Source: an uncultured Spirochaetales bacterium | GTDB lineage: Bacteria > UBP6 > UBA1177 | Length of the DNA stretch: 64,000 bases | Direction: 5' to 3' | NCBI GenBank assembly: GCA_964630905.1 | Contig: CAZVWR010000009.1 | Coordinates: forward strand, 208 to 64,207 | Shown: positions 45,406 through 58,367 of the stretch, one piece after another | Layout of the letters: each line of letters begins with the position of its first letter | Position numbering within the stretch: the stretch's first letter is position 1 | Notes under the pieces: model-generated | What the model was told of the DNA's origin: nothing | The model's database searches: none | The model's input: the letters and a program-made list of their open reading frames with translations, nothing else | Program-made: the position numbers and the translations under genes

Positions 45406-46341
45406 TTACGGGTTCGGCCAGTCAACAAAAACACAATCAGATTTTGAGCTGCAGGATGTTCCTCCGCTGTACTGACCGAGGGTCTTATTTGCGCAGTCAG
45501 CAGGGCATGAACCGTCACTTTCTATCAAATTTGTTGATACATAGCACCACTCATACCCATTTTTGTCGCAATAAGTTGAAGTGCCGACAGCTTTACATTT
45601 TTTATCAAAGGTTCCTTCGCATTCCCAGTATCCGTTCATAGATATAGTCCATGGATAAAATATACAGTCAAAAGCATCCTTACAGCTTTTTCCGTCACCC
45701 GAGTCTTTGAAATCGCAGTCCGCAGGACACGATTTTTTAGATTCACCGCTTCTTGGTTCACATGTTCCGTTTCCGCAGGCAGCCGTTCCATATTGAGGTG
45801 TACAGACCTTGCTGATACAGTCCCAGCTACCCTGTTTTTCAACGCATCCGCCTTCATCACCCCAGAATCCACCCATACAGACCTGTTTCTGTTCTCCAAG
45901 ATTATTTGTGCCGCAGGGAAGTGTTCTTGTTTCTTCGCCTACGCACTCTGTTCCGCCGGTATTTCCTGAATCACCTGTATTTCCTGAGTTGCCGGTATTT
46001 CCAGTATTTCCAGTATTTCCAGTGTTTCCGGTGTTGCCAGTATTTCCGGTGTTGCCGGTATCGCCAGAGTCACCGCTGTTGCCGGAATTACCGGTATCGC
46101 CTGAATTTCCTGAGTCACCTGTATTTCCGGTGTCTCCAGTGTTTCCGGTGTCTCCAGTGTTTCCGGTGTTGCCAGTATTTCCGGTGTTGCCGGTATTACC
46201 GGTATCTCCAGTATTGCCGGTATCTCCAGTATTACCGGTATCACCTGAATCACCTACTGCAACCCTTTTGGTCTGATTGGTGTCACATGAAATAAAAAGA
46301 AAAAAGAATGCGATCAAAATTGCAGAAAATCTGATTTTCAT
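45406..46341 (-). CDS. lipoprotein with 34 uninterrupted G-[DN]-[TS] triplets and Cys-rich C-terminal domain
   Basis: 311 aa. Lipobox [34 protein letters not shown]...GNTGGT covers 102 aa. The C-terminal 170 aa has more than 20 Cys. Confidence 0.8.
45955..46254 (-). repeat. in-frame 9-bp-periodic tandem repeat encoding (G-[DN]-[TS])34
   Basis: About 300 bp of ggtatt(t/a)cc / ggtgttgcc / ggtatc(g/t)cc units. Confidence 0.9.
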
Positions 46342-46389: not shown

Positions 46390-47487
46390 TTATGACAAAA
46401 TATTATTTTTGGAAGTTGTTTTTTTCAGTATTTCCACGACGGTCATTACATCAATGTTTACCGGATTATTGTCAGATCTGCCGGGAACGATGGATTGTCC
46501 GGCGATAGATTCAAAATCGTTTTCCAAAACACCGTAATCATAAATGTTTATGCTGAAACCCATTGAATTCATTATGTCTTTCATTTTGCCGCTCAGCCCG
46601 GAAATGTTTTTGACATTAAACAATTTGAAAAGTTCATCAAAAACCGCAGAAGTTTTCTGATTGAAATTTATTTCTGCAAGATGGGGAAGTGTAAGAAAAA
46701 CTGCAATTCCATGAGAAATTCCGAATTTAGCAGTAAGCGGATATGAAATGGCATGAGAAGCAGTTGTTTTTGAGATATTAATAGCTTTTCCTGCAAGATA
46801 GCTTCCCATTTGAAAGAGTTTGAGTTTTTCAATATTATCAGCATGTTGAATTCCTTTCAAAATAAGTTTCACCGCCTCTTTTGCGTAACCGTACGATTCT
46901 TCCGTTGCTCCTTTTGCCCACATGGATTCAACTGCCTGGGAAAGGGCATCAAGAACTGTTGCGTTCCTGATCTTTTCGGGAAGCTCAAGAAGAAAAGTAT
47001 GATCAAGTATGACCGCTTCAGCTCTGATCGTATTATGTGCGACAGAATATTTTTTCCCGTTTTTATATACAACGGCAAAATGTGTCGCTTCGCTTCCTGT
47101 TCCGCAGGTAGTTGGAACAAATATCAGTTTTTTCAAGTTCTTAAACCCTGACGGGTCTGCAAGGATGGAATCTATTTTTTCAAGACGGTTTGATAGAGCC
47201 AGAGCAATTATCTTTGCAATGTCCATGACCGTTCCGCCACCGACTGCCACAACATGAGAAAAGGCTCTTTCTTTAATGTTATCATAAAGTTGCTGAATAT
47301 CCTCAACTGGCAGTGCTGACCCTGAATATGTCAAATGGTTTGCCTTTTGTTCCGATATTATGTTGATGATGACATTCTTTTTATCGGCGTTTGCAAGAGT
47401 TTCTTCAGGCATTGTTATAAAAAGGGTTTTTTCTGCATAAATAAGTGACGGAAGAACCGAAATATCATAAAAAAGAGAGCTATCCAT
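46390..47487 (-). CDS. iron-containing alcohol dehydrogenase, probable phosphonoacetaldehyde reductase (FomC/PhpC-like)
   Basis: 365 aa Fe-ADH fold (VAVGGGTVMDIAK; HAISYPL...HGIAV). It overlaps the phosphonopyruvate decarboxylase gene by 8 nt. Confidence 0.75.
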   Translation of the reverse strand: MDSSLFYDISVLPSLIYAEKTLFITMPEETLANADKKNVIINIISEQKANHLTYSGSALPVEDIQQLYDNIKERAFSHVVAVGGGTVMDIAKIIALALSNRLEKIDSILADPSGFKNLKKLIFVPTTCGTGSEATHFAVVYKNGKKYSVAHNTIRAEAVILDHTFLLELPEKIRNATVLDALSQAVESMWAKGATEESYGYAKEAVKLILKGIQHADNIEKLKLFQMGSYLAGKAINISKTTASHAISYPLTAKFGISHGIAVFLTLPHLAEINFNQKTSAVFDELFKLFNVKNISGLSGKMKDIMNSMGFSINIYDYGVLENDFESIAGQSIVPGRSDNNPVNIDVMTVVEILKKTTSKNNILS

Positions 47488-48610
47488 TTTTTATGCAATT
47501 CATGAAATTTGCTTTGTTTTCAACAGGTGTCGTTGTCGGTCTTCCAAGATCGGGACGGGATCCTTTTTTTGATCGTACCACAAGGAGTTTGAGCTCATTA
47601 TTTTTAACCAGTTCAGGAATGGTTTTTTCCACTTCTGCAATGGAAGATGCCGAAAACACGAATTTGTAGCCGCAGTTTTTTGCAACACCTTCAAAAGAGA
47701 CTGTTGAAGATAAAGTGGGTTGTCCTCCGGTTGATTCATGTGCCTGATTGTCAATGATGATGTGAGTGATATTTCTGTTCTGTCCGTGCTTTCCAAGAGC
47801 CGCAAAAGTTCCCATCTGCATCAAAGCGGCACCGTCACCGTCAATTATGAAAACGGGTTTCCCGTGATCTCCTGTAGCAACTCCAAGAGCAATTGAAGAA
47901 GCGCAGCCCATTGATCCGACGGTATAAAAATCAGTATCATGAGGAAGCTTGAATTTTTCTCTTATTTCAAAAAGTTCTCTGCTTGTTTTTCCGGTGGTTG
48001 AAATGAAAAGAGAGTTCACCGGAGCTGCGGCAACTATTTTCTCAAGTATCTCTTCTCTGAGAGGAAGTGGATTTTCAGTTTTTTTCTTTTCAACGCAAGG
48101 CTCTGAAAACATTTCGCTTTTTACGATTATTGCAAAAGGGCTCCTGTTTACTTTACAGTATTTTAAAGCGCTGGTTATCTGTTCCTGCCAGCTCTCTATA
48201 TCAAGTTCACAGCTCTCTATTTCAAGGGTTTTAAGCAGATCTTTTGTAATGCGACCCATCATTTTATGCTGAGGTTCATCTTTTTTTCCCGGTTCGCCAC
48301 GCCATCCGATTATCATGAGCATCGGAATGGAATATACATCTTTTGAAGCAAGGGAAGTGTACGGGTTTACAGTTTTGCCGAAGCCGGAATTCTGCATGTA
48401 GACAACAGGGATCTTACCCGTTGCAAGGTGATAACCGCAGGCAATGCCGACCGCTTCACATTCATTAGATGCGGCAAGATGTTTAAACCAGGGATTGCCA
48501 GAATTGATAAATGTTGTAAGTCCTTTGAAAGTTGAGTCAGGAACACCTGTAAAAAGATCAGTTCCGTTTTCAGCAAGGAACGATATGAATTTTTCCGGAT
48601 CTATCATCAT
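47480..48610 (-). CDS. phosphonopyruvate decarboxylase (ThDP-dependent; Fom2/AepY-like)
   Basis: 376 aa. N-terminal [22 protein letters not shown]. ThDP motif [13 protein letters not shown]...IIIDN. Confidence 0.85.
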
Positions 48611-49908
48611 GTTCTCTCCGGTATGAGCGTTAAGATCTCTTTTATTGACATGCAGGCCTTGTCAGCTTCGTAGGCCCTTTCATTTTCGAGGATCGTTTGA
48701 GCAGTCTTTATCATTGCAGGATAAGCGCTTCTTAAAAGCTGGTTTGCATATATCACTATTCTGACACCGGCTTTTTTAAGTTCTGTTTCAGTTATGGAAT
48801 TATATGTCGACGGAACCACTACAAGCGGAACTTTCACATTGAACTCGTTGTATCTTCTGCAGAATTCAAGGATCTCGTCAGGAGATTTCTCTTTGCTGTG
48901 GATCATTATGCCGTCAGCCCCTGCGGCAACATAAGCCTCTGCCCTTTTTATCGCATCATCCATTCCTGCATTCAGGATGAGGGACTCTATTCTTGCAAAT
49001 ATCATGAAATTCTGAGTCACTTGCGCTTTTTTACCTGTTCTGATCTTTTCGCAGAAATTTTCAATTGAATCCTGAGTCTGCTCAACCTCTGTTCCGAAAA
49101 GAGAATTCTTTTTAAGCCCCACTTTGTCTTCTATTATCACAGCTGAAACGCCCTCCCTTTCAAGAGTTCTCACCATGAAAACAAAATGTTCGGTAAGTCC
49201 GCCGGAATCCCCGTCGAAGATTATAGGCTTTGTTGTTACTTCGAGAATGTCGGAAACCGTATTCATTCTTGAGGTAAGATCGACACATCCTATATCGGGC
49301 TTACCTTTTGCAGTCGAATCAGTAAGACTGCTGAGCCACATTGCGTCAAATTCACGGGTAACATTCTCTTTTTTTATGCTGGTCTTTTCAACGATAAGTC
49401 CGGTAAGTCCGTTATGTGCTTCCATGACTTTTACAATGTCTTTTGATTCAAGAAGTCTTCTAAGCATGTTAAGACGGATCCCCGGTGTTGTTCCCATCTC
49501 CCTTATCCAGATATTCAGCTCTGTCGAGGAAACTCCCGGTGTGTATGTGGGTTCAATAAGCTCACCGCCCCATTTTGCAAGAGCGTTTATCACTTTCTGG
49601 CGAACTTCTTTCTGTACACCCGTTTTCCAGTCATCCCCGTGAACTACAAAATCGGGTCTGTATTTTTCAAGATTCGGAACATAGTCAAGTGTCTCCTGCG
49701 GAACAACTTCTGCTACACCCTTGATGTTCTCTATGACCTTTTTTCTCTGGTCAAATGTCATATAGGGAAGCCGCTTGTAGCTTGCAATTGCTCTGTCGGT
49801 GAGAAGTCCGATAATGACATCTCCATATTTCCTCGCTTCTTCAATGATGTTAAGGTGTCCCGGATGGATAAGGTCAGCACTCATTGCCACATATACTTTT
49901 TTGTTCAT
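48607..49908 (-). CDS. bifunctional cytidylyltransferase / phosphoenolpyruvate mutase (Fom1-like fusion)
   Basis: 433 aa. The N-terminus is a TagD-like HxGH cytidylyltransferase ([22 protein letters not shown]). The C-terminus is a PEP mutase ([21 protein letters not shown]) with the diagnostic EDKx5NS motif ([12 protein letters not shown]). Confidence 0.88.
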
Positions 49909-49922
49909 TTCTGTCTCCTAAA

Positions 49923-50513
49923 TTATTTTGACATTTTTATTATCTGCAGTTCCTTTGATATGGCTTCAAAAATGGCCGGTTCATCCGCAAGAACAGCATC
50001 AATGGTCTTTTTCAGAATTTCATTTGCAGCTGCGATACCTTTTATGATCTCTTCATTTGTAGGCTTTTTAACGGCACTGTTCCTTGCTGTGTTCCAATCG
50101 TTGAAGGCAAGAAGCATTCCCTGAGTGAGTGAATAGACATCTTTCACTTTTTTTCTGTCACGGTCGAAAGTGGTCTGTTTCCACTCCTCTTCCATTTTTG
50201 CATAGTGGGGCTGGTCCCATTTCTTTTTGAAGTGCTCGATCAGAGCGGTATTTGTGTCGTAGTAATGCTTACATTTGCTCTGAATGGTTTTCAAAAGTGA
50301 TGCACTTTCGGAAAAGGCCTTGCTTTTGTTTTTCCTTGCCAGTTCCTCCATTTCACGGATAGTGTTCTTGAAAATTGTGTCATTAGGCCGGAACTCCTGA
50401 AACATTTTATATCCGTCGTTATGAAGCATGATCGACTGAACTGATTGTTTGGAGTAAAGATCTAAAGTCAGTAGCGGAATTAGAAAAGAAATCAAAAGAA
50501 ACAGATTTTTCAT
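49923..50513 (-). CDS. hypothetical secreted helical protein
   Basis: 196 aa with signal peptide MKNLFLLISFLIPLLTLDLYS. K/E-rich and helical. It sits between the phosphonate module and the fusion genes. Confidence 0.5.
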   Translation of the reverse strand: MKNLFLLISFLIPLLTLDLYSKQSVQSIMLHNDGYKMFQEFRPNDTIFKNTIREMEELARKNKSKAFSESASLLKTIQSKCKHYYDTNTALIEHFKKKWDQPHYAKMEEEWKQTTFDRDRKKVKDVYSLTQGMLLAFNDWNTARNSAVKKPTNEEIIKGIAAANEILKKTIDAVLADEPAIFEAISKELQIIKMSK

Positions 50514-50531: not shown

Positions 50532-53120
50532 TTATAAGTTATCAGTTTTTTTCCAGTTTGACAAATTAAAAATATCCTCATCATACACTGTGAAGAGTTC
50601 AGTAAAAGAGTACTTGAACTTTTCCTGCTCCCTCATACGGAATCTTGTTTTCATAACGGTGAAAGGAACCTTTTTCTTTTTCATTTTAACAGGGTTTCCC
50701 GTGTATGGATTCATTCCGTCGATTATATCTTTCAATGCAAGAGAAGGAATGTCGCATGTTGTCATGAAAGTTTCTTCAAGTTCCAGTTCGCCTCTTGAAT
50801 TAAAGTCTTTCACAAGGAGAATGTTATGCCAGTGTGCGGGAGTTGTTCCTTTTTTCGACCCCTTGATCTTCTGTTCTTTAAACATGGGGTTGAAAACATT
50901 CCTGCCGTGATCGGAAACGATGATTATCCTTGTGTTGTCGTAAACTCCTTTTTCTTTCATCCAGTTGAACCATTCTCCGGCAAGTTTCAGTGCCGCTCCG
51001 TCGGTGTAGATATGTTTCAACGAATTCATGCTTCTATTATATTTTTTAAAAAGATCTAGGGGGTATTTGAGAATTCTGTCATTGCTTATGCTGAAATCAT
51101 TCCCCGTTATCCACGGTTCATGAGTGAGTTTCGTCGAAAAATAATAGAACTTTCCCCTTTCTGTTTCTGATGCACTTGATAATTCAGACAGATAATCCAA
51201 GGTACTGTAATTTTTCAAATATCCTAAAATGAGACTGTTATTTGTCTCTTTCCATGAAACCACTCCATCCTCATCAAATGATATCTTTTCCTTTTTTGCT
51301 TTTCCTTTTTTTGTTTCCACAAGGTCAGGTCGGTTCGCTTCAAGGTTCCACTGACCTTCATCATATACAGCGTTTCTCAGGAAAGGAGGCGACACTCTGA
51401 AAAATCCGAAAACGGCCAATTTTTCAATAAAATCAGATCTTTCCGCATCAAGTTCTTTTTCTTTAAGCCATGTGTCAAGATATTTTCCGGTCAAATTCTC
51501 AACAGCGGTATTCTCAAGGTGGGTTTTGTCATCAGCTTTCAGCCAGCTTGAAAGATACCCGTAGATCGTTGAATCAAATCGGGCACGGGTGAAATTGTAA
51601 GGCAGGACCCTGATCGATTCATTCATCCTGTCAACAAGAGGAACATCCTGTCTCGAAGTATTCATGACCTCCGCGTGATAATCCCAGCCACCCATTATTG
51701 ATGGTTCAGAAGAGAGAGTATCGCTACCCGATGAGAGAGAGCGGGGATACCAGACAAATCCGTCAAGTATCTCATTTTTAAGTTCAGGAATAAGTTCAGT
51801 AAGTTCGGGAATATATCCGCCGATGAATCTGTCAAGCAGAATAACAAGAACATTCTTTCTGTTAGTTGAAAAAACGAATTTTTTCTCAAGCTCTGATGCC
51901 GGCGAAAGATCTTCTGTGTCACTTTTTTCATGAAAAATAGCACCTTCGTGAATAGAAAACATAAAAAGAGATAAAGAAAGAATTGAAACAGCAATGTTTA
52001 AAATCCTGTTTTTACCGAAACGGAACAATATTCCGGTAACTACTGATATTAAAACAAGAACGGCAAGATTTATCAGGTTGTCTGTTGCTGAAATGTGAAG
52101 CCCTTCTTCAAAAACAAAATTTGAAATATCACCGTAATCACCTGCAAAAATGAAAACATTCGCAATTGCATAAAGGTAAAGTGCGGTTGTCAGTCCGGCA
52201 AGAATCTTTTTAAGAAGTTCTGAACTGTAGTAGAAAAGGGTCGATGCGGTTATTGCAAAAACAGTGAAAAGCATTAACTGGAAAGAGAGTATCTGCGAAA
52301 AAGTTCCTTCAATATCAGATTCCGAGCCCGATGCAAGAAGAATGAAAGGAACGGCTATAAAAGTCAGATAGGCAAGTGAGAAAAGAGAGATGAAAAAACC
52401 GGTGAGATATTCTTTTGAAACTTTTTCAGAAGTGAATAGATGTATTTTCCTTTGTCCTGCATATTTGAACATTATGCTTTTCACTATTCCGAAAATGTTG
52501 TTAGAAGTCCAGTATATCAGAAGTGCGCTTGAAGAGTTGTATAAAATCACAAGGAACAGTAACGAAATCACATAACTGTTTATCTTTTCCTTAAGAGAGA
52601 GATCCTTTCCGTAAACAAAAGCATATCCGAGGTTTGCGGCAGTCATGACAAAAGGCATTATATTTACAGTGAATCCTGCAATCTGAATGAGTCCGTCCGG
52701 TTCTCCGAGATTTTCAAATATTAGTGTTGAGACACCGTTTAGCTGCTGATAATCCGAGATGAAAACATATGCGGCAAAGAAAAACGGTATCTGGATCAGA
52801 AATCCAAGAGACGATCTGACAGCAAGTACCGGGTGGTAGTGATTCTGTCTGTACAGGGTGGTGATGTATCTGTTGAGAACCGAACCTTTGAAAACACTCC
52901 TGAACTCATTTATCTTGGGCTCCATTTTTTTCTGGGTGGACCGCTCAAGTGTCTGAAGTCTTTCAGCAATAATTGAAAATGGCATGGAAACAAGAGTAAC
53001 CGAAAGACTCAGAAGTATGAGTGACCAGAAATGGGATCCGGTCATACCGATAAGGTTTTCAAAGATGAATTCCATGAGAATTTTAAGGGGAAGTATGAAT
53101 ATGGTGGAAAGGTATTCCAT
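50532..53120 (-). CDS. fusion protein: YidC/Oxa1-like core, about 6 extra TM segments, and a sulfatase/alkaline-phosphatase-superfamily (LtaS/EptA-like) ectodomain (paralog B)
   Basis: 862 aa. The first roughly 215 aa follow the YidC/Oxa1 pattern (KKMEPKINEFRSVF...LYRQNHYHP...GFLIQIPFFFAAY...NLGEPD...NIMPFVM...SALLIYWTSNNIFGIV). The C-terminal domain has NVLVILLDRFIGGY, a Thr-containing GSDTLSSEP loop, LTHEP and IIIVSDHGRN. Confidence 0.7.
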   Translation of the reverse strand: MEYLSTIFILPLKILMEFIFENLIGMTGSHFWSLILLSLSVTLVSMPFSIIAERLQTLERSTQKKMEPKINEFRSVFKGSVLNRYITTLYRQNHYHPVLAVRSSLGFLIQIPFFFAAYVFISDYQQLNGVSTLIFENLGEPDGLIQIAGFTVNIMPFVMTAANLGYAFVYGKDLSLKEKINSYVISLLFLVILYNSSSALLIYWTSNNIFGIVKSIMFKYAGQRKIHLFTSEKVSKEYLTGFFISLFSLAYLTFIAVPFILLASGSESDIEGTFSQILSFQLMLFTVFAITASTLFYYSSELLKKILAGLTTALYLYAIANVFIFAGDYGDISNFVFEEGLHISATDNLINLAVLVLISVVTGILFRFGKNRILNIAVSILSLSLFMFSIHEGAIFHEKSDTEDLSPASELEKKFVFSTNRKNVLVILLDRFIGGYIPELTELIPELKNEILDGFVWYPRSLSSGSDTLSSEPSIMGGWDYHAEVMNTSRQDVPLVDRMNESIRVLPYNFTRARFDSTIYGYLSSWLKADDKTHLENTAVENLTGKYLDTWLKEKELDAERSDFIEKLAVFGFFRVSPPFLRNAVYDEGQWNLEANRPDLVETKKGKAKKEKISFDEDGVVSWKETNNSLILGYLKNYSTLDYLSELSSASETERGKFYYFSTKLTHEPWITGNDFSISNDRILKYPLDLFKKYNRSMNSLKHIYTDGAALKLAGEWFNWMKEKGVYDNTRIIIVSDHGRNVFNPMFKEQKIKGSKKGTTPAHWHNILLVKDFNSRGELELEETFMTTCDIPSLALKDIIDGMNPYTGNPVKMKKKKVPFTVMKTRFRMREQEKFKYSFTELFTVYDEDIFNLSNWKKTDNL

Positions 53121-53134
53121 AAAATTGTCCTTTG

Positions 53135-54418
53135 TTAAGATCCTGCGATCCGCATTATTTCATCAGCACCTTTTAACCCCGATTCTCCCGGAAATTTATC
53201 CATGCTGTTATGAATGAATTCAAGATGATTAGCAAATTCAGCTTTGTCTGCAAGTTTTTCATTGATAAGTCTTTCCAGATATTCAATATCATGCTCTTCA
53301 ATTGAAACACCTGTTTTTTCAACTGCCTGCAACACCCATGGATCCTCTTTTATGTCCATTGAATCGTGTCCCCGTTTGTCGTAATTTCCTTTGAAAGCCA
53401 GTACCGGTTTTTCAAATAGAAGGATAAAATCAAATATTATTCCGGAAAAATCGCTTATCATTATGTCAGCTGTTTTCATTGATTCTGTGCCGTCAGGAGC
53501 ACTATCCCAGACAAGATGCTCCCCGTCAGGAAATTTATTTTTCAGTTCGCTGATAAGATCTTTGTCTGATATCCATCCTTGAGGGTGGGGTCGCACTATG
53601 ATATTGAATTTATTGAGATTCGTGAGATGTGTAAGTATTTTTTCACCATATTTTCTAAGCAGTCCGTGAAGTCCCCATGTGGGGGAAAGGAGTATTGTGA
53701 TCCTGTCTGAAGGAGTCACTTTGATTTTGGACGCTTTTTCACGGAGAACATCCATATAAGTGCATCCTATGGCGACAAGTTCCTTTGCCGGCAGTCCGCG
53801 AACCTGTTCAAGTTCGCGAATAAATTCAATATCTGAATCTCCTCCGGTAAGGACGGCATCATAGTAATCAGTCCCGTATGTTGCGTAACCGCTGCATCCT
53901 CCTCCTGTAGAGTGAGGGATGTGAACATATTTTCTAACCCCTTTGCTTCTTTTTATCTGAAGAACATCCAGTCCGGGGGTTGTCATAATGCAGACATCGG
54001 CAGTCATGGTATTCATGTAGAAGAAAGCTTTGTTCCCTTCACCGATGAACTTTGTTTCGATATTTGGGAATCCGCAGGTTAAACCCGGATCGTTCTCTTT
54101 GCTTGTCAGATAGGTGCATTTGATGCCTCTAGAGCTTAACTCTTTGATAACAGGCAGGAAAACATTCCAGTACTGAGGACCTTCAGAATAAAATACGATA
54201 GAGTGTTTTGTTTTTTTTTCTCTGCCGACCCCTGAAATATAGGCGGGAAGATCTATTATCTTGAAAAACAGTCCTTTGATAACAAAAAAAAGTGTTGCGA
54301 CTATACCTATGACAGCGGAAAACAGCATGCTTCCTGAACCGGGATCAAGATAACCGAAAAGAGGAAGCGGCAGTATGATCATTAACAAAAGATAGGTCAA
54401 AACCCTGTTTTTATTCAT
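53135..54418 (-). CDS. TagB/TagF-family (CDP-glycerol glycerophosphotransferase-like) phosphotransferase with N-terminal TM anchor
   Basis: About 427 aa from MNKNRVLTYLLLMIILPL. Has ADIMISDFSGIIFDFILLFEKPVL and the preceding HP..GW region typical of the Glyphos_transf family. The track start at 54532 overlaps the upstream gene and is rejected. Confidence 0.68.
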   Translation of the reverse strand: MNKNRVLTYLLLMIILPLPLFGYLDPGSGSMLFSAVIGIVATLFFVIKGLFFKIIDLPAYISGVGREKKTKHSIVFYSEGPQYWNVFLPVIKELSSRGIKCTYLTSKENDPGLTCGFPNIETKFIGEGNKAFFYMNTMTADVCIMTTPGLDVLQIKRSKGVRKYVHIPHSTGGGCSGYATYGTDYYDAVLTGGDSDIEFIRELEQVRGLPAKELVAIGCTYMDVLREKASKIKVTPSDRITILLSPTWGLHGLLRKYGEKILTHLTNLNKFNIIVRPHPQGWISDKDLISELKNKFPDGEHLVWDSAPDGTESMKTADIMISDFSGIIFDFILLFEKPVLAFKGNYDKRGHDSMDIKEDPWVLQAVEKTGVSIEEHDIEYLERLINEKLADKAEFANHLEFIHNSMDKFPGESGLKGADEIMRIAGS

Positions 54419-57038
54419 AAAGCCTTCTCCATTTTGAAGGTGAATCAATATCTTCAAATTTTTCAACCACATATTTTTCATGATATCTGTATTTGAATTT
54501 GTCCTGCTTTTCAACGCGCCACTGAACATCATAGATATAGAACGGAAATTTATTCTTTGGCATTTCTATCTTTTTTCCAGTGTAAGGGTTTACCGCATCG
54601 GGAATTATATCTTTGACCGCCAGAGCCGGAACATCGGCCGATGTCATGAACTCATTCTCTGTCCGGAGCTCTCCCTGAGAATCAAAATCTTTTACCAGAA
54701 GCAGATTGTTGTAATATGAAGGGTGGGCTTTTTTTCTGGTATTAGGGATCCGCTGCTGTTTGAAGAAAGGATTGTAGACATCTCTTCCGTGATCAGAAAC
54801 AATGATTATCCTAGTGTTGTCGTATACTCCGCTATCTTTCATCCATCGAATCCATTTGTTGACCAGTCTCAGTGCCGCAGCGTCTGTATAAAGATGTCTT
54901 ACAGCGGTGAGACTTTTGTGGAATTTGTTGAATACCGACCTGGGATATGTGACTTTTCCGGTGACCTCAAATTCAAAATCGCTGTTTATCGAATGGGGTT
55001 CATGGGTCAGATTATTTGAAAGAAAAATGAACTGTCCTTTTCCCTCTTCAAGAACTCTCGACATTTCCGGAAGAAAATCGAGTGCGGCATAATATTTCAG
55101 AGTTGTGTCTCTTCTGTATTTGCTTTTCTGGTTTGCGATCACAAACTTTTTCTCATCCGGTTTTTCATAATTTTCCTCATTTTCTACATCTGATTCGATA
55201 TGCCATTCCCCTTTGTCGTAGATAAATTCCCTTACAAAAAGAGGTGAAGCCCGAAACAGTCCGAATGCGAGCAGTTTTTTTCTGAGAGTATCATCATTAC
55301 CGCTTTCCTTTTCATTTTTCTGAAGCCACATCTCTCTGTATTTAGGGTAATCAGGTTCAATGAATTGGGTGTTGCCTATATATTCCTTGTTGTTTTCATC
55401 AACCCAGTTGGTGCTTTTGTCAAACCAGTTTATGCAGTCTGTCCGGTAAATTTTCACGCCGTACCCGGACTTGTCGAAGTTGTACGGAAGTATTCTGGAA
55501 CTCTCATCCAGTTTTTTAAGCAGAGGAACCTCGGTTCTTATCAGATTTGCATTATGAACATTGTAATCCCATCCGCCAAGTATGGGCGGGACTCCTCCGA
55601 TAGTATAGCTTGCCTGCGAAAGAGAATTTCTGTAATAGACAAATCCGTCGAGATCTGATTTGAGGTTTGGCATAAGTTCAAGGATCTGAGGCATATAGCC
55701 GCCGATAAACCTGTCAAGCATAATAATGACAACATTTTTCCCTGTCTTTGAAAATGTGTAATGGTTTTCTTTCAGATCGATCTGAGCTATTAAAATATTT
55801 GTTCTTTTATCCTTGTAGGCAAATGATTCGTTTATCGAAAAAAGAATAAGCGATATTATGATGACTGAAAGTGCCGGTCTTAAAAACCGGGTCCATTTTT
55901 TAAGAAGAAGAAAAACCGCACCGGCAATTATCACTCCGGAAAAGATATTTAAAAGGATTTCAAACATCTCTATTTCAAGCTCTTCGTTAAATACAAAATG
56001 GCTCATGTCACCGTAGTTGCCTGCAAATGCAAAAGTGTTTATCAGTCCATATAAAAGAAGGAAAAGTGCTGCCGCACAAAGAACGGTCCGTCCTTTTTTG
56101 CTGAAAATATAATAGATTACAACGGCTGCTGTGAAAAAAACAAATGAAAAAGCCAAAAGATAGTAAAAATAGTGCGACAACGCTTCTTCAAAATCGGAAG
56201 ATGACCCCGAAGAAAGGACTGCAAGAGGAACCGATATGAAAGTTAGTATTGTAAAAGCTGCTGCCGCAAGTCTGAAGATCCTGTCGGTCTCTTTCGAGGA
56301 ATCGGGAATAAATTTGAACAGTTTCTGCAATAACTCCGGTGTTTTTTCTCTTTTTGTTATAGCACCGTCCTTATATATGAAAAGATAAACAACATTCTTG
56401 ATAAGAGCAAAAATGTTGTTGCAGGTCCAGTAAAAAAGAAGCGCACTTGTTGAATTATAAAGAACCACAAGAAAAAGAAGTGCCATTCCGTAAAGCTGAA
56501 ACTGTTCCTTCAAAGAGGTCTTTTTCCCGTATACAATCGCCGACCCGATATTCACCGCAGTCATAAGCAGAGGCATGATATTTACCGAGAAGGAACCGAT
56601 TGAAAGAAGTGAATCGGGTTTTCCGAGATCTTTAAAAAGTGCTGTCGTGACACCATTGAATGCGGAATAATTTGAAAGAAGGTGATATGCGGCAAAGAAG
56701 AAAGGGATCTGTATCAGCAGTCCGAAAGATGCCCTTATGGCAAAAGCGGGATGGTATCCGTTCTGTCTGTAAAGGGTGCTGATGTAACTGTTTAGCGCCG
56801 ATCCCCTGAAAACCGCCTTGAATTCTGATATTTTCGGTTTAAGTTTTTTCTGGGTCTCCCTTTCTTTATCCTGCCACGATTCGGCAATGTGATAAAGTGG
56901 AAGTGAGCCGATAGAAACAGCGATGCTTAGAACCATAAGTGAGATCAGAGGACTTCCTGTTGAAGAAAGTGCCCATTCGAGCACTGATTTCATTAAAAAT
57001 TCAAGGGGGTATATGAAAATATTGTAAAAAATCTCCAT
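54411..57038 (-). CDS. fusion protein: YidC/Oxa1-like core, extra TM segments, and sulfatase/LtaS/EptA-like ectodomain (paralog A)
   Basis: 875 aa, roughly 50% identical by eye to 50532..53120. Has KKLKPKISEFKAVF...LYRQNGYHP...GLLIQIPFFFAAY...DLGKPD...SALLFYWTCNNIFALI, then NVVIIMLDRFIGGY, ASYTIGGVPP, LTHEP and IIIVSDHGRD. Confidence 0.7.
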   Translation of the reverse strand: MEIFYNIFIYPLEFLMKSVLEWALSSTGSPLISLMVLSIAVSIGSLPLYHIAESWQDKERETQKKLKPKISEFKAVFRGSALNSYISTLYRQNGYHPAFAIRASFGLLIQIPFFFAAYHLLSNYSAFNGVTTALFKDLGKPDSLLSIGSFSVNIMPLLMTAVNIGSAIVYGKKTSLKEQFQLYGMALLFLVVLYNSTSALLFYWTCNNIFALIKNVVYLFIYKDGAITKREKTPELLQKLFKFIPDSSKETDRIFRLAAAAFTILTFISVPLAVLSSGSSSDFEEALSHYFYYLLAFSFVFFTAAVVIYYIFSKKGRTVLCAAALFLLLYGLINTFAFAGNYGDMSHFVFNEELEIEMFEILLNIFSGVIIAGAVFLLLKKWTRFLRPALSVIIISLILFSINESFAYKDKRTNILIAQIDLKENHYTFSKTGKNVVIIMLDRFIGGYMPQILELMPNLKSDLDGFVYYRNSLSQASYTIGGVPPILGGWDYNVHNANLIRTEVPLLKKLDESSRILPYNFDKSGYGVKIYRTDCINWFDKSTNWVDENNKEYIGNTQFIEPDYPKYREMWLQKNEKESGNDDTLRKKLLAFGLFRASPLFVREFIYDKGEWHIESDVENEENYEKPDEKKFVIANQKSKYRRDTTLKYYAALDFLPEMSRVLEEGKGQFIFLSNNLTHEPHSINSDFEFEVTGKVTYPRSVFNKFHKSLTAVRHLYTDAAALRLVNKWIRWMKDSGVYDNTRIIIVSDHGRDVYNPFFKQQRIPNTRKKAHPSYYNNLLLVKDFDSQGELRTENEFMTSADVPALAVKDIIPDAVNPYTGKKIEMPKNKFPFYIYDVQWRVEKQDKFKYRYHEKYVVEKFEDIDSPSKWRRLYE

Positions 57039-57050
57039 TTCCTGATGACC

Positions 57051-58367
57051 TTATTTAAGAACTCTTTCAATTCTTTTAAGGCCTTCGAGGATATCTTCCT
57101 CCTTAACATCGAGGAACGGTCTGAATCTGACGGAAACATCTCCGCATGGAAGAACGATGAGATTTTCCTTTGTCATACAGTCATTGAGAAATTTCTTGCG
57201 TGCATCCTTGCTTTCAAGGTCAAAAGATACAAAAAGCCCCTTCCCCCTTACATTGGAAACTTTGCCTGTCTTTTTTGCGATCTTTTCAAGCCCAGTGACG
57301 AGAACCTTTCCCATTTTCCTGGCATTATCAAGAAGTTTGTCATCTCTAATTATTTCAAGATAACGGGTTACTCTTTTCATATCGACAATGCTTCCGCCCC
57401 ATGTCGAATTTATTCTGCTCGATTCTGCAAAGACATTGTTGGGAACTTCAAGAACCCTGTCACCCACCATTATGCCGCATATCTGGAATTTTTTACCGAA
57501 ACAGATAACATCCGGCTTCACACCGTAGTGTTCGTGAGCCCACATTTTTCCTGTTATACCGCCGCCTGACTGTACTTCGTCAAAAATAAGAAGAAATTCA
57601 TATTTGTCAGCAAGTTTTCTCAGTTCTTCCATATATTCCGGTCTGAAATGGTTGTCTCCGCCTTCACCCTGGATCGGTTCAATTATGAGCCCTGCAATGT
57701 CATCTTTATACTTTTTGCATGCTTCAGTTATCTGTGCAATGGATTTTTTTTCAGCTTCCTTAACTTTTTTGAGAGTTGCTTCATTCATCGGGAATATCAT
57801 CTTCGGATTTTCAACTCTCGGCCAGTCAAACATCGGGAAATACTGATATTTTCTCGGATCTGATGTGTTGGTCATGCTCAAAGTATAACCTGTTCTGCCG
57901 TGGAAGGACTGTTTGAAATGGATGATCTTTGTCCCTTTTTCGGTCTTGATCCCTTTAGCGAAGTTCTTTCTCACTTTCCAGTCGAAAGCAGTTTTTAAAG
58001 CGTTCTCTACGGCAAGTGCTCCGCCTGATATGAAAAACATTTTCTTCATATATTTAGGCATTGCGACTTCCGCCATTATCTGTGTGAATTCAGCCATTGT
58101 CGTTGTGTAGAAATCGCTGTTTGAAATGTTGTGCAAAGAAATGCGTCCGATCTCCTCAATGAATTTCCTGTTATTCATTTTCGGATGATTGAATCCCAGC
58201 GGCATTGATGCAAAAAACGAAAAGAAATCGAGATATTCCTTTTTATGTTTTGCGTCATAAAGATAACTTCCGTGACTTTTTTCAGCGTCCACGACAATGT
58301 CATATCCGTCACAAAGGATATATTTTCCAAGAATTTCATGAACCTGTTTAGCATTGATCTTTTTCAT
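57051..58367 (-). CDS. lat: class III PLP aminotransferase, L-lysine 6-transaminase type
   Basis: 438 aa, collinear with LAT. Has GGALAVENALKTAFDWK, EPIQGEGGDNHFRPEY, LIFDEVQSGGGITG, FGKKFQICG and NSTWGG. Confidence 0.85.
   Translation of the reverse strand: MKKINAKQVHEILGKYILCDGYDIVVDAEKSHGSYLYDAKHKKEYLDFFSFFASMPLGFNHPKMNNRKFIEEIGRISLHNISNSDFYTTTMAEFTQIMAEVAMPKYMKKMFFISGGALAVENALKTAFDWKVRKNFAKGIKTEKGTKIIHFKQSFHGRTGYTLSMTNTSDPRKYQYFPMFDWPRVENPKMIFPMNEATLKKVKEAEKKSIAQITEACKKYKDDIAGLIIEPIQGEGGDNHFRPEYMEELRKLADKYEFLLIFDEVQSGGGITGKMWAHEHYGVKPDVICFGKKFQICGIMVGDRVLEVPNNVFAESSRINSTWGGSIVDMKRVTRYLEIIRDDKLLDNARKMGKVLVTGLEKIAKKTGKVSNVRGKGLFVSFDLESKDARKKFLNDCMTKENLIVLPCGDVSVRFRPFLDVKEEDILEGLKRIERVLK

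Follow-up and report, generated by a model that had tools for sequence, protein, structure and literature searches.

A Fom1-type gene cassette predicted to supply CMP-activated 2-hydroxyethylphosphonate beside candidate envelope transferases of an uncultured Spirochaetales bacterium

2-Hydroxyethylphosphonate (HEP) is a major phosphonate of marine and other organic matter. In the fosfomycin pathway of Streptomyces wedmorensis, formation of CMP-HEP by the cytidylyltransferase (CyTase) domain of Fom1 has been described (PMC6697681, PMC9088020). On the other hand, the LicC-like enzyme PntC (PF12804) of the Pnt pathway makes CMP-activated 2-aminoethylphosphonate (CMP-AEP) for LicD-like transferases (Rice et al. 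2019, PMC6697681). Fusions of a PF01467 domain to phosphoenolpyruvate (PEP) mutase (Ppm) account for 23.6% of RefSeq PEP mutases (PMC6697681), and annotation resources label such proteins fom1 (PMC12590816). HEP-type neighbourhoods represent 8.5% of ppm neighbourhoods (PMC8942020, PMC13576164), and a HEP-decorated polysaccharide has been isolated from actinomycetes (same two papers). The steps past cytidylyl activation have been termed 'enigmatic' (PMC6697681). Here we analyse a three-gene phosphonate cassette (ppm-ppd-adh) and its neighbours in a stretch of 64,000 nucleotides, hereafter the window, from contig CAZVWR010000009.1 (assembly GCA_964630905.1, positions 208 to 64,207, forward strand) of an uncultured Spirochaetales bacterium (GTDB UBP6; UBA1177).

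The window encodes the same three enzymes as the fosfomycin pathway (Fom1/Fom2/FomC), including the same fusion of CyTase and PEP mutase, and the chemistry is predicted to be identical up to CMP-HEP. An earlier note on this DNA, written from its letters alone, had read the genes as a Fom1/Fom2/FomC-type module for CMP-HEP. This reading is supported by the enzyme families, by the identity of the CyTase, and by the missing PhnW-type transaminase; the three open reading frames (ORFs) lie on the minus strand within the coordinates that the note had given, and their motifs and overlaps of 4 nt and 8 nt are those that it had described. Each of the note's refuting conditions that is open to computation came out on the side of this reading. 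We consider it very probable, judging from the encoded sequences, that the cassette makes CMP-HEP. As a whole explanation, a cassette supplying CMP-HEP as a donor for the cell envelope is the reading that we favour, with a rough probability of 0.7. The cassette consists of the following features:

48607..49908, minus strand: bifunctional Fom1-type fusion of CyTase and PEP mutase, 433 aa (PF01467 at aa 12-130, TIGR02320 at aa 149-431)
49498..49908, minus strand: CyTase domain, aa 1-137 of the fusion, matching the Fom1 CyTase 5x3d_A
48616..49464, minus strand: PEP mutase domain, aa 149-431 of the fusion (TIGR02320; EDKx5NS motif)
47480..48610, minus strand: phosphonopyruvate decarboxylase, a thiamine diphosphate (ThDP) enzyme of 376 aa (TIGR03297; GVPDS, GDGAALM)
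46390..47487, minus strand: predicted PhpC/FomC-type phosphonoacetaldehyde reductase, 365 aa, with the fold of iron-type alcohol dehydrogenases (Fe-ADH; PF00465 and PF25137, best model TIGR03405)

The decarboxylase gene starts on the stop codon of the mutase gene in an overlap of 4 nt (ATGA, 48607-48610), and the decarboxylase and Fe-ADH genes overlap by 8 nt (ATGGATAG, 47480-47487); ppm, ppd and adh are a translationally coupled trio. Promoter and terminator scans of the region gave counts at shuffle level, and the operon boundary is therefore not callable.

In profile searches the PEP mutase domain reaches 415.4 bits on the equivalog model TIGR02320 (cut-off 319.55), and the decarboxylase 440.7 bits on the equivalog TIGR03297 (cut-off 312.5). 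The diagnostic EDKx5NS motif of PEP mutase is located at aa 260-269 of the fusion (window 49102-49131), and the decarboxylase carries GVPDS at aa 22-26 and GDGAALM at aa 258-264. The fusion is a single-copy protein, and no second PEP mutase is present in the genome, which is 98% complete. The CyTase domain matches CTP_transf_like (PF01467, E 3.6e-16, aa 12-130) and displays an intact HxGH motif (HPGH, aa 15-18, window 49855-49866) as well as the second motif YTPGVSST (window 49522-49545). Residues 5-137 of the fusion align with the Fom1 CyTase (PDB 5x3d_A) with E 2.9e-59 and 202 bits, 88/133 positions (66%) being identical. Among other PDB enzymes, human ethanolamine-phosphate cytidylyltransferase (ECT) scores 77 bits and TagD 46 bits, and the equivalog model for glycerol-3-phosphate cytidylyltransferase, TIGR01518, gives 52 bits against a cut-off of 165. 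Given the 66% identity and the low scores for TagD, ECT and TIGR01518, the CyTase is near kin of the one enzyme that has been shown to make CMP-HEP. The family assignments made in the earlier note hold: mutase and decarboxylase pass their equivalog cut-offs, and PF01467, PF00465 and PF25137 are all matched. The comparison with Fom1 and TagD that it proposed comes out on the side of Fom1, at 66% identity as opposed to 46-52 bits for TagD-type enzymes.

The dehydrogenase matches both halves of the Fe-ADH fold, PF00465 and PF25137. Of the NCBIfam models, TIGR03405, which is associated with phosphonates, fits it best (177 bits; next family 98 bits), and its closest PDB alignment is sulfoacetaldehyde reductase (6jko/6jkp). 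According to a 2026 study of PhpC-type enzymes, the metal site of PhpC is composed of Asp191/His195/His260/His274 (PMC13576164). Tyr264 of PhpC, located 4 residues past the first His, forms a hydrogen bond with the phosphonate; PhpC enzymes keep it without exception, whereas sulfoacetaldehyde reductases, among them the Zn-dependent 6jkp with Gln at the second ligand, have Phe in its place (PMC13576164). For the window enzyme, D180, Q184, H245 and H259 are predicted as metal ligands, and Tyr249 (in SHAISY) aligns with the Phe of 6jko/6jkp. This PhpC-hallmark Tyr is conserved in all 22 aligned cluster-linked ADH orthologues, and Gln as second ligand (DALSQ, aa 180-184, window 46936-46950) is found in 16/22 of them. 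A homologue with 82% identity is named 'phosphonoacetaldehyde reductase' by NCBI, as are many others. Based on Tyr249, the best model TIGR03405 and the naming of homologues, a grouping of the dehydrogenase with phosphonoacetaldehyde reductases is supported at the level of sequence; it does not fall among unrelated alcohol dehydrogenases, a possibility that the earlier note had raised.

A scan of relatives with one genome per species returned 41 loci. Across very distant groups the CyTase::PEP-mutase protein is 56-91% identical, and it is found in metagenome-assembled genomes (MAGs) labelled Sumerlaeota (91%), in Cloacimonadota, Planctomycetota, Verrucomicrobiota and Patescibacteria, and in Woese- and Nanoarchaeota. 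Such identity across remote groups therefore points to horizontal spread under strong constraint. The order fusion, decarboxylase, Fe-ADH recurs in 23 of the fetched loci, spread over numerous phyla of bacteria and archaea, which answers the earlier suggestion to look for the same gene order in other genomes. Recurrent neighbours of the trio elsewhere are CDP-alcohol phosphatidyltransferases (7 loci), Wzx-type flippases and glycosyltransferases, and these neighbourhoods point to decoration of lipids or glycans via a CMP-linked donor.

The state of the HxGH motif follows this context. It is intact in 23/23 fusions found together with an ADH gene. Another 11 loci are without ADH; in its stead they encode a fusion of a PhnW-like class-V aminotransferase with a methyltransferase. 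TPSH or TPGH replaces HxGH in the nine full-length CyTase::PEP-mutase fusions of these loci (L019, L021, L022, L024, L027, L028, L030, L036, L038), from Verrucomicrobiota and Planctomycetota, which form one well-supported clade nested among the ADH-type sequences. A second degenerate group, with the motif HPGI, belongs to the window's own phylum (genomes G018, G021 and G036; loci L067, L074 and L051), and here the third gene of the trio encodes a PntC::PhnW fusion. This suggests that the CyTase domain may be dead or repurposed in AEP-type clusters. The catalytic His is lost upon the switch to AEP, with a LicC-type cytidylyltransferase gained in the second group; hence the intact CyTase of the window would be dedicated to HEP, for which this pattern is indirect evidence. 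As a simple sequence rule, decay of HxGH may also serve to sort active HEP cytidylyltransferases among the many PF01467::Ppm fusions.

Some of the other trio loci show further variations. Fom3-class B12-binding radical-SAM enzymes are encoded beside the trio in 7 loci (L006, L011, L016, L020, L023, L025, L026) from Patescibacteria, DPANN archaea and one Pirellulales MAG (L023), and stand-alone cytidylyltransferases of 175-185 aa occur in L006, L011, L016, L025 and L026. These Fom3-class genes could indicate methylation of CMP-HEP, leading to a hydroxypropylphosphonate head group, outside Streptomyces. Locus L069 (6705-8714) encodes a triple fusion of 669 aa, in which a PntC-like NTP_transf_3 domain precedes a PF01467 CyTase with intact HGGH and a PEP mutase; it is followed by Fe-ADH and then Ppd, i.e. 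in inverted order.

Based on this dataset, we propose the following route, its four steps to CMP-HEP being assigned because each enzyme is closely homologous to a characterised one. PEP would be turned into phosphonopyruvate by the C-terminal mutase domain of the fusion, and the ThDP enzyme would decarboxylate phosphonopyruvate to phosphonoacetaldehyde, thereby drawing the unfavourable equilibrium onward; for both of these enzymes homology is above the equivalog cut-off. The dehydrogenase, which has PhpC-type features and a fitting gene context and scores below the curated cut-off, would reduce phosphonoacetaldehyde to HEP. The N-terminal Fom1-type domain is then predicted to form CMP-HEP from HEP and CTP, as its 66% identity, its intact motifs and the argument from motif decay suggest. 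CMP-HEP would be neither methylated nor hydrolysed, and would act as an activated head-group donor.

Candidates for the use of this donor are located upstream of the cassette, where a YidC::LtaS-like fusion gene, a TagF-like gene and a second paralogue of the fusion gene follow one another with spacings of at most 18 nt or with overlap:

50532..53120, minus strand: YidC-like::polytopic::LtaS/EptA-like (sulfatase-fold) fusion, paralogue 2, 862 aa (PF02096 63 bits, PF00884 25 bits)
53135..54418, minus strand: TagF-like phosphotransferase of CDP-alcohol type, about 427 aa when counted from an ATG start at 54418 (PF04464 Glyphos_transf, E 1.1e-7)
54411..57038, minus strand: YidC-like::polytopic::LtaS/EptA-like fusion, paralogue 1, 875 aa (PF02096 73 bits, PF00884 39 bits)

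The TagF-like gene runs 8 nt into the preceding fusion gene, and the two YidC::LtaS-like paralogues are 43% identical; their sulfatase-like domain gave marginal matches only in PDB. PF12804 and LicD found no match among the array ORFs scanned (43.6-61 kb). By gene context, and by chemical analogy with TagF and its donor CDP-glycerol, an acceptor hydroxyl would attack the phosphonate phosphorus of CMP-HEP on the TagF-like enzyme, with release of CMP. As the place of their genes in the array suggests, both YidC::LtaS-like membrane proteins may then act on the group at the outer, periplasmic face of the membrane, either handling it or transferring it.

TagF-like and YidC::LtaS-like genes are adjacent wherever contigs allowed checking. 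Both members of this pair are present in 13/61 relatives, of which 8 also carry ppm, and the pair is further found in Photobacterium, Spirochaetales and Treponema. In a genome of the same genus (G001), the flanking PlsC and transaminase genes are 96-98% identical to those of the window, and the YidC::LtaS-like fusion and TagF-like genes just 48-62%. No ppm was found in this genome (92% complete). In place of ppm-ppd-adh it has an opine-dehydrogenase-like gene and a gene for an NTP_transf_3::class-I/II-aminotransferase fusion, likewise G006 and G028. This alternative cassette was seen downstream of the TagF-like gene at L065 1-1915, L064 12122-15058 and L073 1-2781, with an Octopine_DH/G3P-DH-like protein of about 370 aa and an NTP_transf_3::class-I/II aminotransferase of about 600 aa, and presumably makes a CDP-activated amino-alcohol phosphate. 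In G036 the PntC::PhnW gene abuts the pair. In Photobacterium kishitanii (L076 3819-11947), the pair is preceded by a TagD-like cytidylyltransferase of 156 aa and a three-gene ABC importer, and adjoins phage-integrase remnants; this region may be a mobile surface-modification island.

Since G001, G006 and G028, then G036, and Photobacterium carry differing nucleotidyl-donor cassettes by the pair, the pair looks like a conserved installation platform that would be fed by interchangeable cassettes, each with a nucleotidyltransferase. The locus appears to diverge like a capsule or O-antigen locus, with an exchangeable donor cassette. The inference of the earlier note, that the product is a donor for the envelope, is supported, not proved, by these other cassettes beside the pair in relatives.

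Other genes around the array appear to be less closely related to its function. The secreted protein of 196 aa encoded between the fusion genes and ppm (49923-50513) was considered as a member of the cassette, and rejected as a core gene of the lineage, present in 33/61 relatives and in 21/22 of the family. Directly downstream of the ADH gene, a lipoprotein is encoded (45406-46341) in which G-[DN]-[TS] triplets repeat over a long stretch; it belongs to a very large family, with dozens of paralogues spread across over 30 further contigs. A role of this lipoprotein as dedicated acceptor is not supported, given these dozens of paralogues and its absence from the syntenic locus L003. The downstream flank, hyp392, is not syntenic in relatives and therefore uninformative. 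Elsewhere in the same genome (contig C32, 16519-17727), a CDP-alcohol phosphatidyltransferase gene adjoins a LicC/PntC-like nucleotidyltransferase gene; this couple may belong to a separate head-group or inositol-phosphate pathway.

Several observations weigh against the proposed supply of an envelope donor. Concerning the cassette, the dehydrogenase fails the curated cut-off of TIGR03405 (177 vs 423.7 bits), Gln184 replaces His as its second metal ligand, and the association between HxGH state and gene context is based on just two independent losses. Concerning the pair, 5 genomes bear it without ppm and 3 bear ppm without it, and in G018 pair and ppm are located on separate contigs. As for the TagF-like protein, it is only very remotely related to the rest of its family (31.6 bits in Pfam) and has no significant match in PDB. 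Taking these points into account, we still regard a use of CMP-HEP in envelope decoration as probable. The chance that the TagF-like enzyme itself is the direct user of CMP-HEP appears to be about even.

A product other than a HEP donor has to be considered. The actual product might be AEP, formed from phosphonoacetaldehyde by an unrecognised transaminase, with the ADH as a side activity. The earlier note had seen no class V transaminase, which holds for the whole genome: the models TIGR03301 and TIGR02326 reach at best 37 and 33 bits (cut-offs 360.8 and 400.8), and the sole class-V fragment, on contig C65, was rejected as PhnW since its motifs SAHK and GSACSS are those of an IscS/NifS-type desulfurase. 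The note overlooked, however, a class-III aminotransferase of omega-amine type (57051-58367), whose gene belongs to the same array of co-directional genes; it lies about 7 kb upstream of the cassette, with 12 nt between it and the gene for YidC fusion paralogue 1, and speaks for AEP. This enzyme passes the cut-off of the L-lysine 6-transaminase equivalog (612 vs 520.8 bits), and it occurs in 35/61 related genomes, many of them without ppm (the fusion being present in 11/61). It was hence discarded as a hidden AEP transaminase; its gene is shown to be a housekeeping gene of vertical descent, which flanks the locus without being part of it. As the ADH is translationally coupled to ppd in addition, we give AEP next to no weight. 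Catabolism, already disfavoured by the coupling of ADH to ppm and ppd, is excluded because no PhnX-type phosphonatase was found in the genome; a HAD match beside a B12 radical-SAM gene on contig C10 is far below the PhnX cut-off. Alternatively, cytidylylation could be transient, as Fom1 itself operates in fosfomycin synthesis (PMC9088020), and distant genes could tailor CMP-HEP so that a phosphonate natural product of small-molecule type results. The presence of three generic B12-binding radical-SAM genes on other contigs may be taken to favour this, yet their identity to Fom3-class genes linked to the cluster in other loci does not exceed 24.5%, and the best of them, on C10, was dismissed as Fom3 for this reason and for its lack of linkage to the cluster. 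The 98%-complete genome has no match to FomD (DUF402, PF04167), for which control genomes were matched, and no radical-SAM, cupin, ATP-grasp or kinase gene was seen among the array ORFs scanned. The earlier statement that antibiotic tailoring genes are missing is thus borne out by the lack of an adjacent Fom3-like gene, of DUF402 in the genome and of a cupin among the scanned ORFs. The differences to the fosfomycin pathway are that Fom3, the B12 radical-SAM methyltransferase, is not adjacent, that FomD is absent from the genome, that the array ORFs scanned include no Fom4/HppE or FomA/B, and that the neighbours of the cassette are membrane transferases. Hence CMP-HEP would be expected to act as the final donor rather than as a transient intermediate. 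With radical-SAM, epoxidase, ATP-grasp, nonribosomal peptide synthetase and resistance-kinase genes not seen in the 18-kb array, and a locus that varies like one for surface antigens, a small-molecule product appears very unlikely.

Even if CMP-HEP is made, it may be used in another way than proposed. A distant CDP-alcohol phosphatidyltransferase could join CMP-HEP to diacylglycerol or another lipid, and the resulting phosphonolipid would be the donor for the LtaS/EptA-like domains, with a different substrate for the TagF-like enzyme. LtaS uses phosphatidylglycerol as donor, and enzymes of the LtaS/EptA family are established to draw head groups from membrane lipids; moreover, CDP-OH_P_transf genes stand beside the trio in 7 other loci, and the genome has five PF01066 genes. 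None of these five is in or near the array, however, whereas the TagF-like gene is inside it, overlaps the gene before it by 8 nt and accompanies donor cassettes in related genomes, so that we regard the phosphonolipid as unlikely. The N-terminal domain might instead supply CDP-glycerol or CDP-ethanolamine to the TagF-like enzyme, with free HEP serving for phosphorus storage, as methylphosphonate precursor or for excretion. This would agree with the Pfam family that the domain shares with TagD and ECT, and with CDP-glycerol as the canonical donor of the TagF family. It would not agree with 202 bits to the Fom1 CyTase as compared to 77 for ECT and 46 for TagD, with 52 bits on TIGR01518 (cut-off 165), with a catalytic motif that decays exactly at the switch from the HEP to the AEP pathway, or with the lack of an MPnS/HEPD-like cupin among the array ORFs scanned, and it appears highly improbable. 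Within the proposed donor function, the TagF-like enzyme might also polymerise CMP-HEP into a teichoic-acid-like chain with one C-P bond per repeat, which the YidC::LtaS-like fusions would export or anchor. Such a polymer is conceivable because HEP bears a terminal hydroxyl of its own, and we consider it rather improbable. If it were true, this lineage would have 'phospho-serotypes', each set by the donor cassette that has been exchanged in (HEP, AEP or an amino-alcohol phosphate that is not a phosphonate).

Returning to CMP-HEP as an envelope donor, a comparison with known systems shows what is shared and what differs. The window ADH resembles the PhpC/FomC/DhpG reductases (TIGR03405) in its Fe-ADH fold, in its position directly after ppd, and in having Tyr 4 residues after and Thr 4 residues before the first His ligand. 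It differs from PhpC, with His at the second ligand, by Gln184, as in 6jkp. With the Pnt pathway the locus would share the Ppm-linked cytidylyl activation of a phosphonate for decoration of the cell surface; the window has a PF01467 CyTase, HEP as predicted phosphonate and a TagF-like candidate transferase, whereas Pnt has PF12804, AEP and LicD-like enzymes. The HEP phosphonoglycans of Stackebrandtia nassauensis and Glycomyces (Yu et al., cited in PMC8942020 and PMC13576164) share the Ppm-Ppd-ADH route and carry HEP on polysaccharide, which shows that glycans decorated with HEP do occur naturally. These actinomycete systems belong to other organisms and other gene neighbourhoods than the window. 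The methylphosphonate cluster of Nitrosopumilus also shares the Ppm-Ppd-ADH route to HEP, and differs in that no MPnS is present among the window array ORFs scanned. A likeness to TagD/TagF teichoic acid synthesis is found in the proximity of a PF01467 cytidylyltransferase gene to a PF04464 transferase gene (53135-54418) and in the analogous CMP-releasing transfer. In the window, however, the donor phosphorus would be that of a phosphonate, and the TagF-like protein, a very remote relative at 31.6 bits, is paired with a YidC::LtaS-like fusion, which has no counterpart in wall teichoic acid synthesis.

The three-gene architecture is already catalogued (PMC6697681, PMC8942020), and there is no new chemistry up to CMP-HEP. 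Less ordinary are the placement of the cassette beside the TagF-like/YidC::LtaS-like pair, the swap of the cassette in a congener, and the rule of HxGH decay. The value of the locus lies in Fom1-type supply genes directly next to conserved candidate installers, with swapped cassettes in close relatives. A clean supply cassette beside candidate installation machinery and these natural swaps would hence make the transfer step experimentally approachable.

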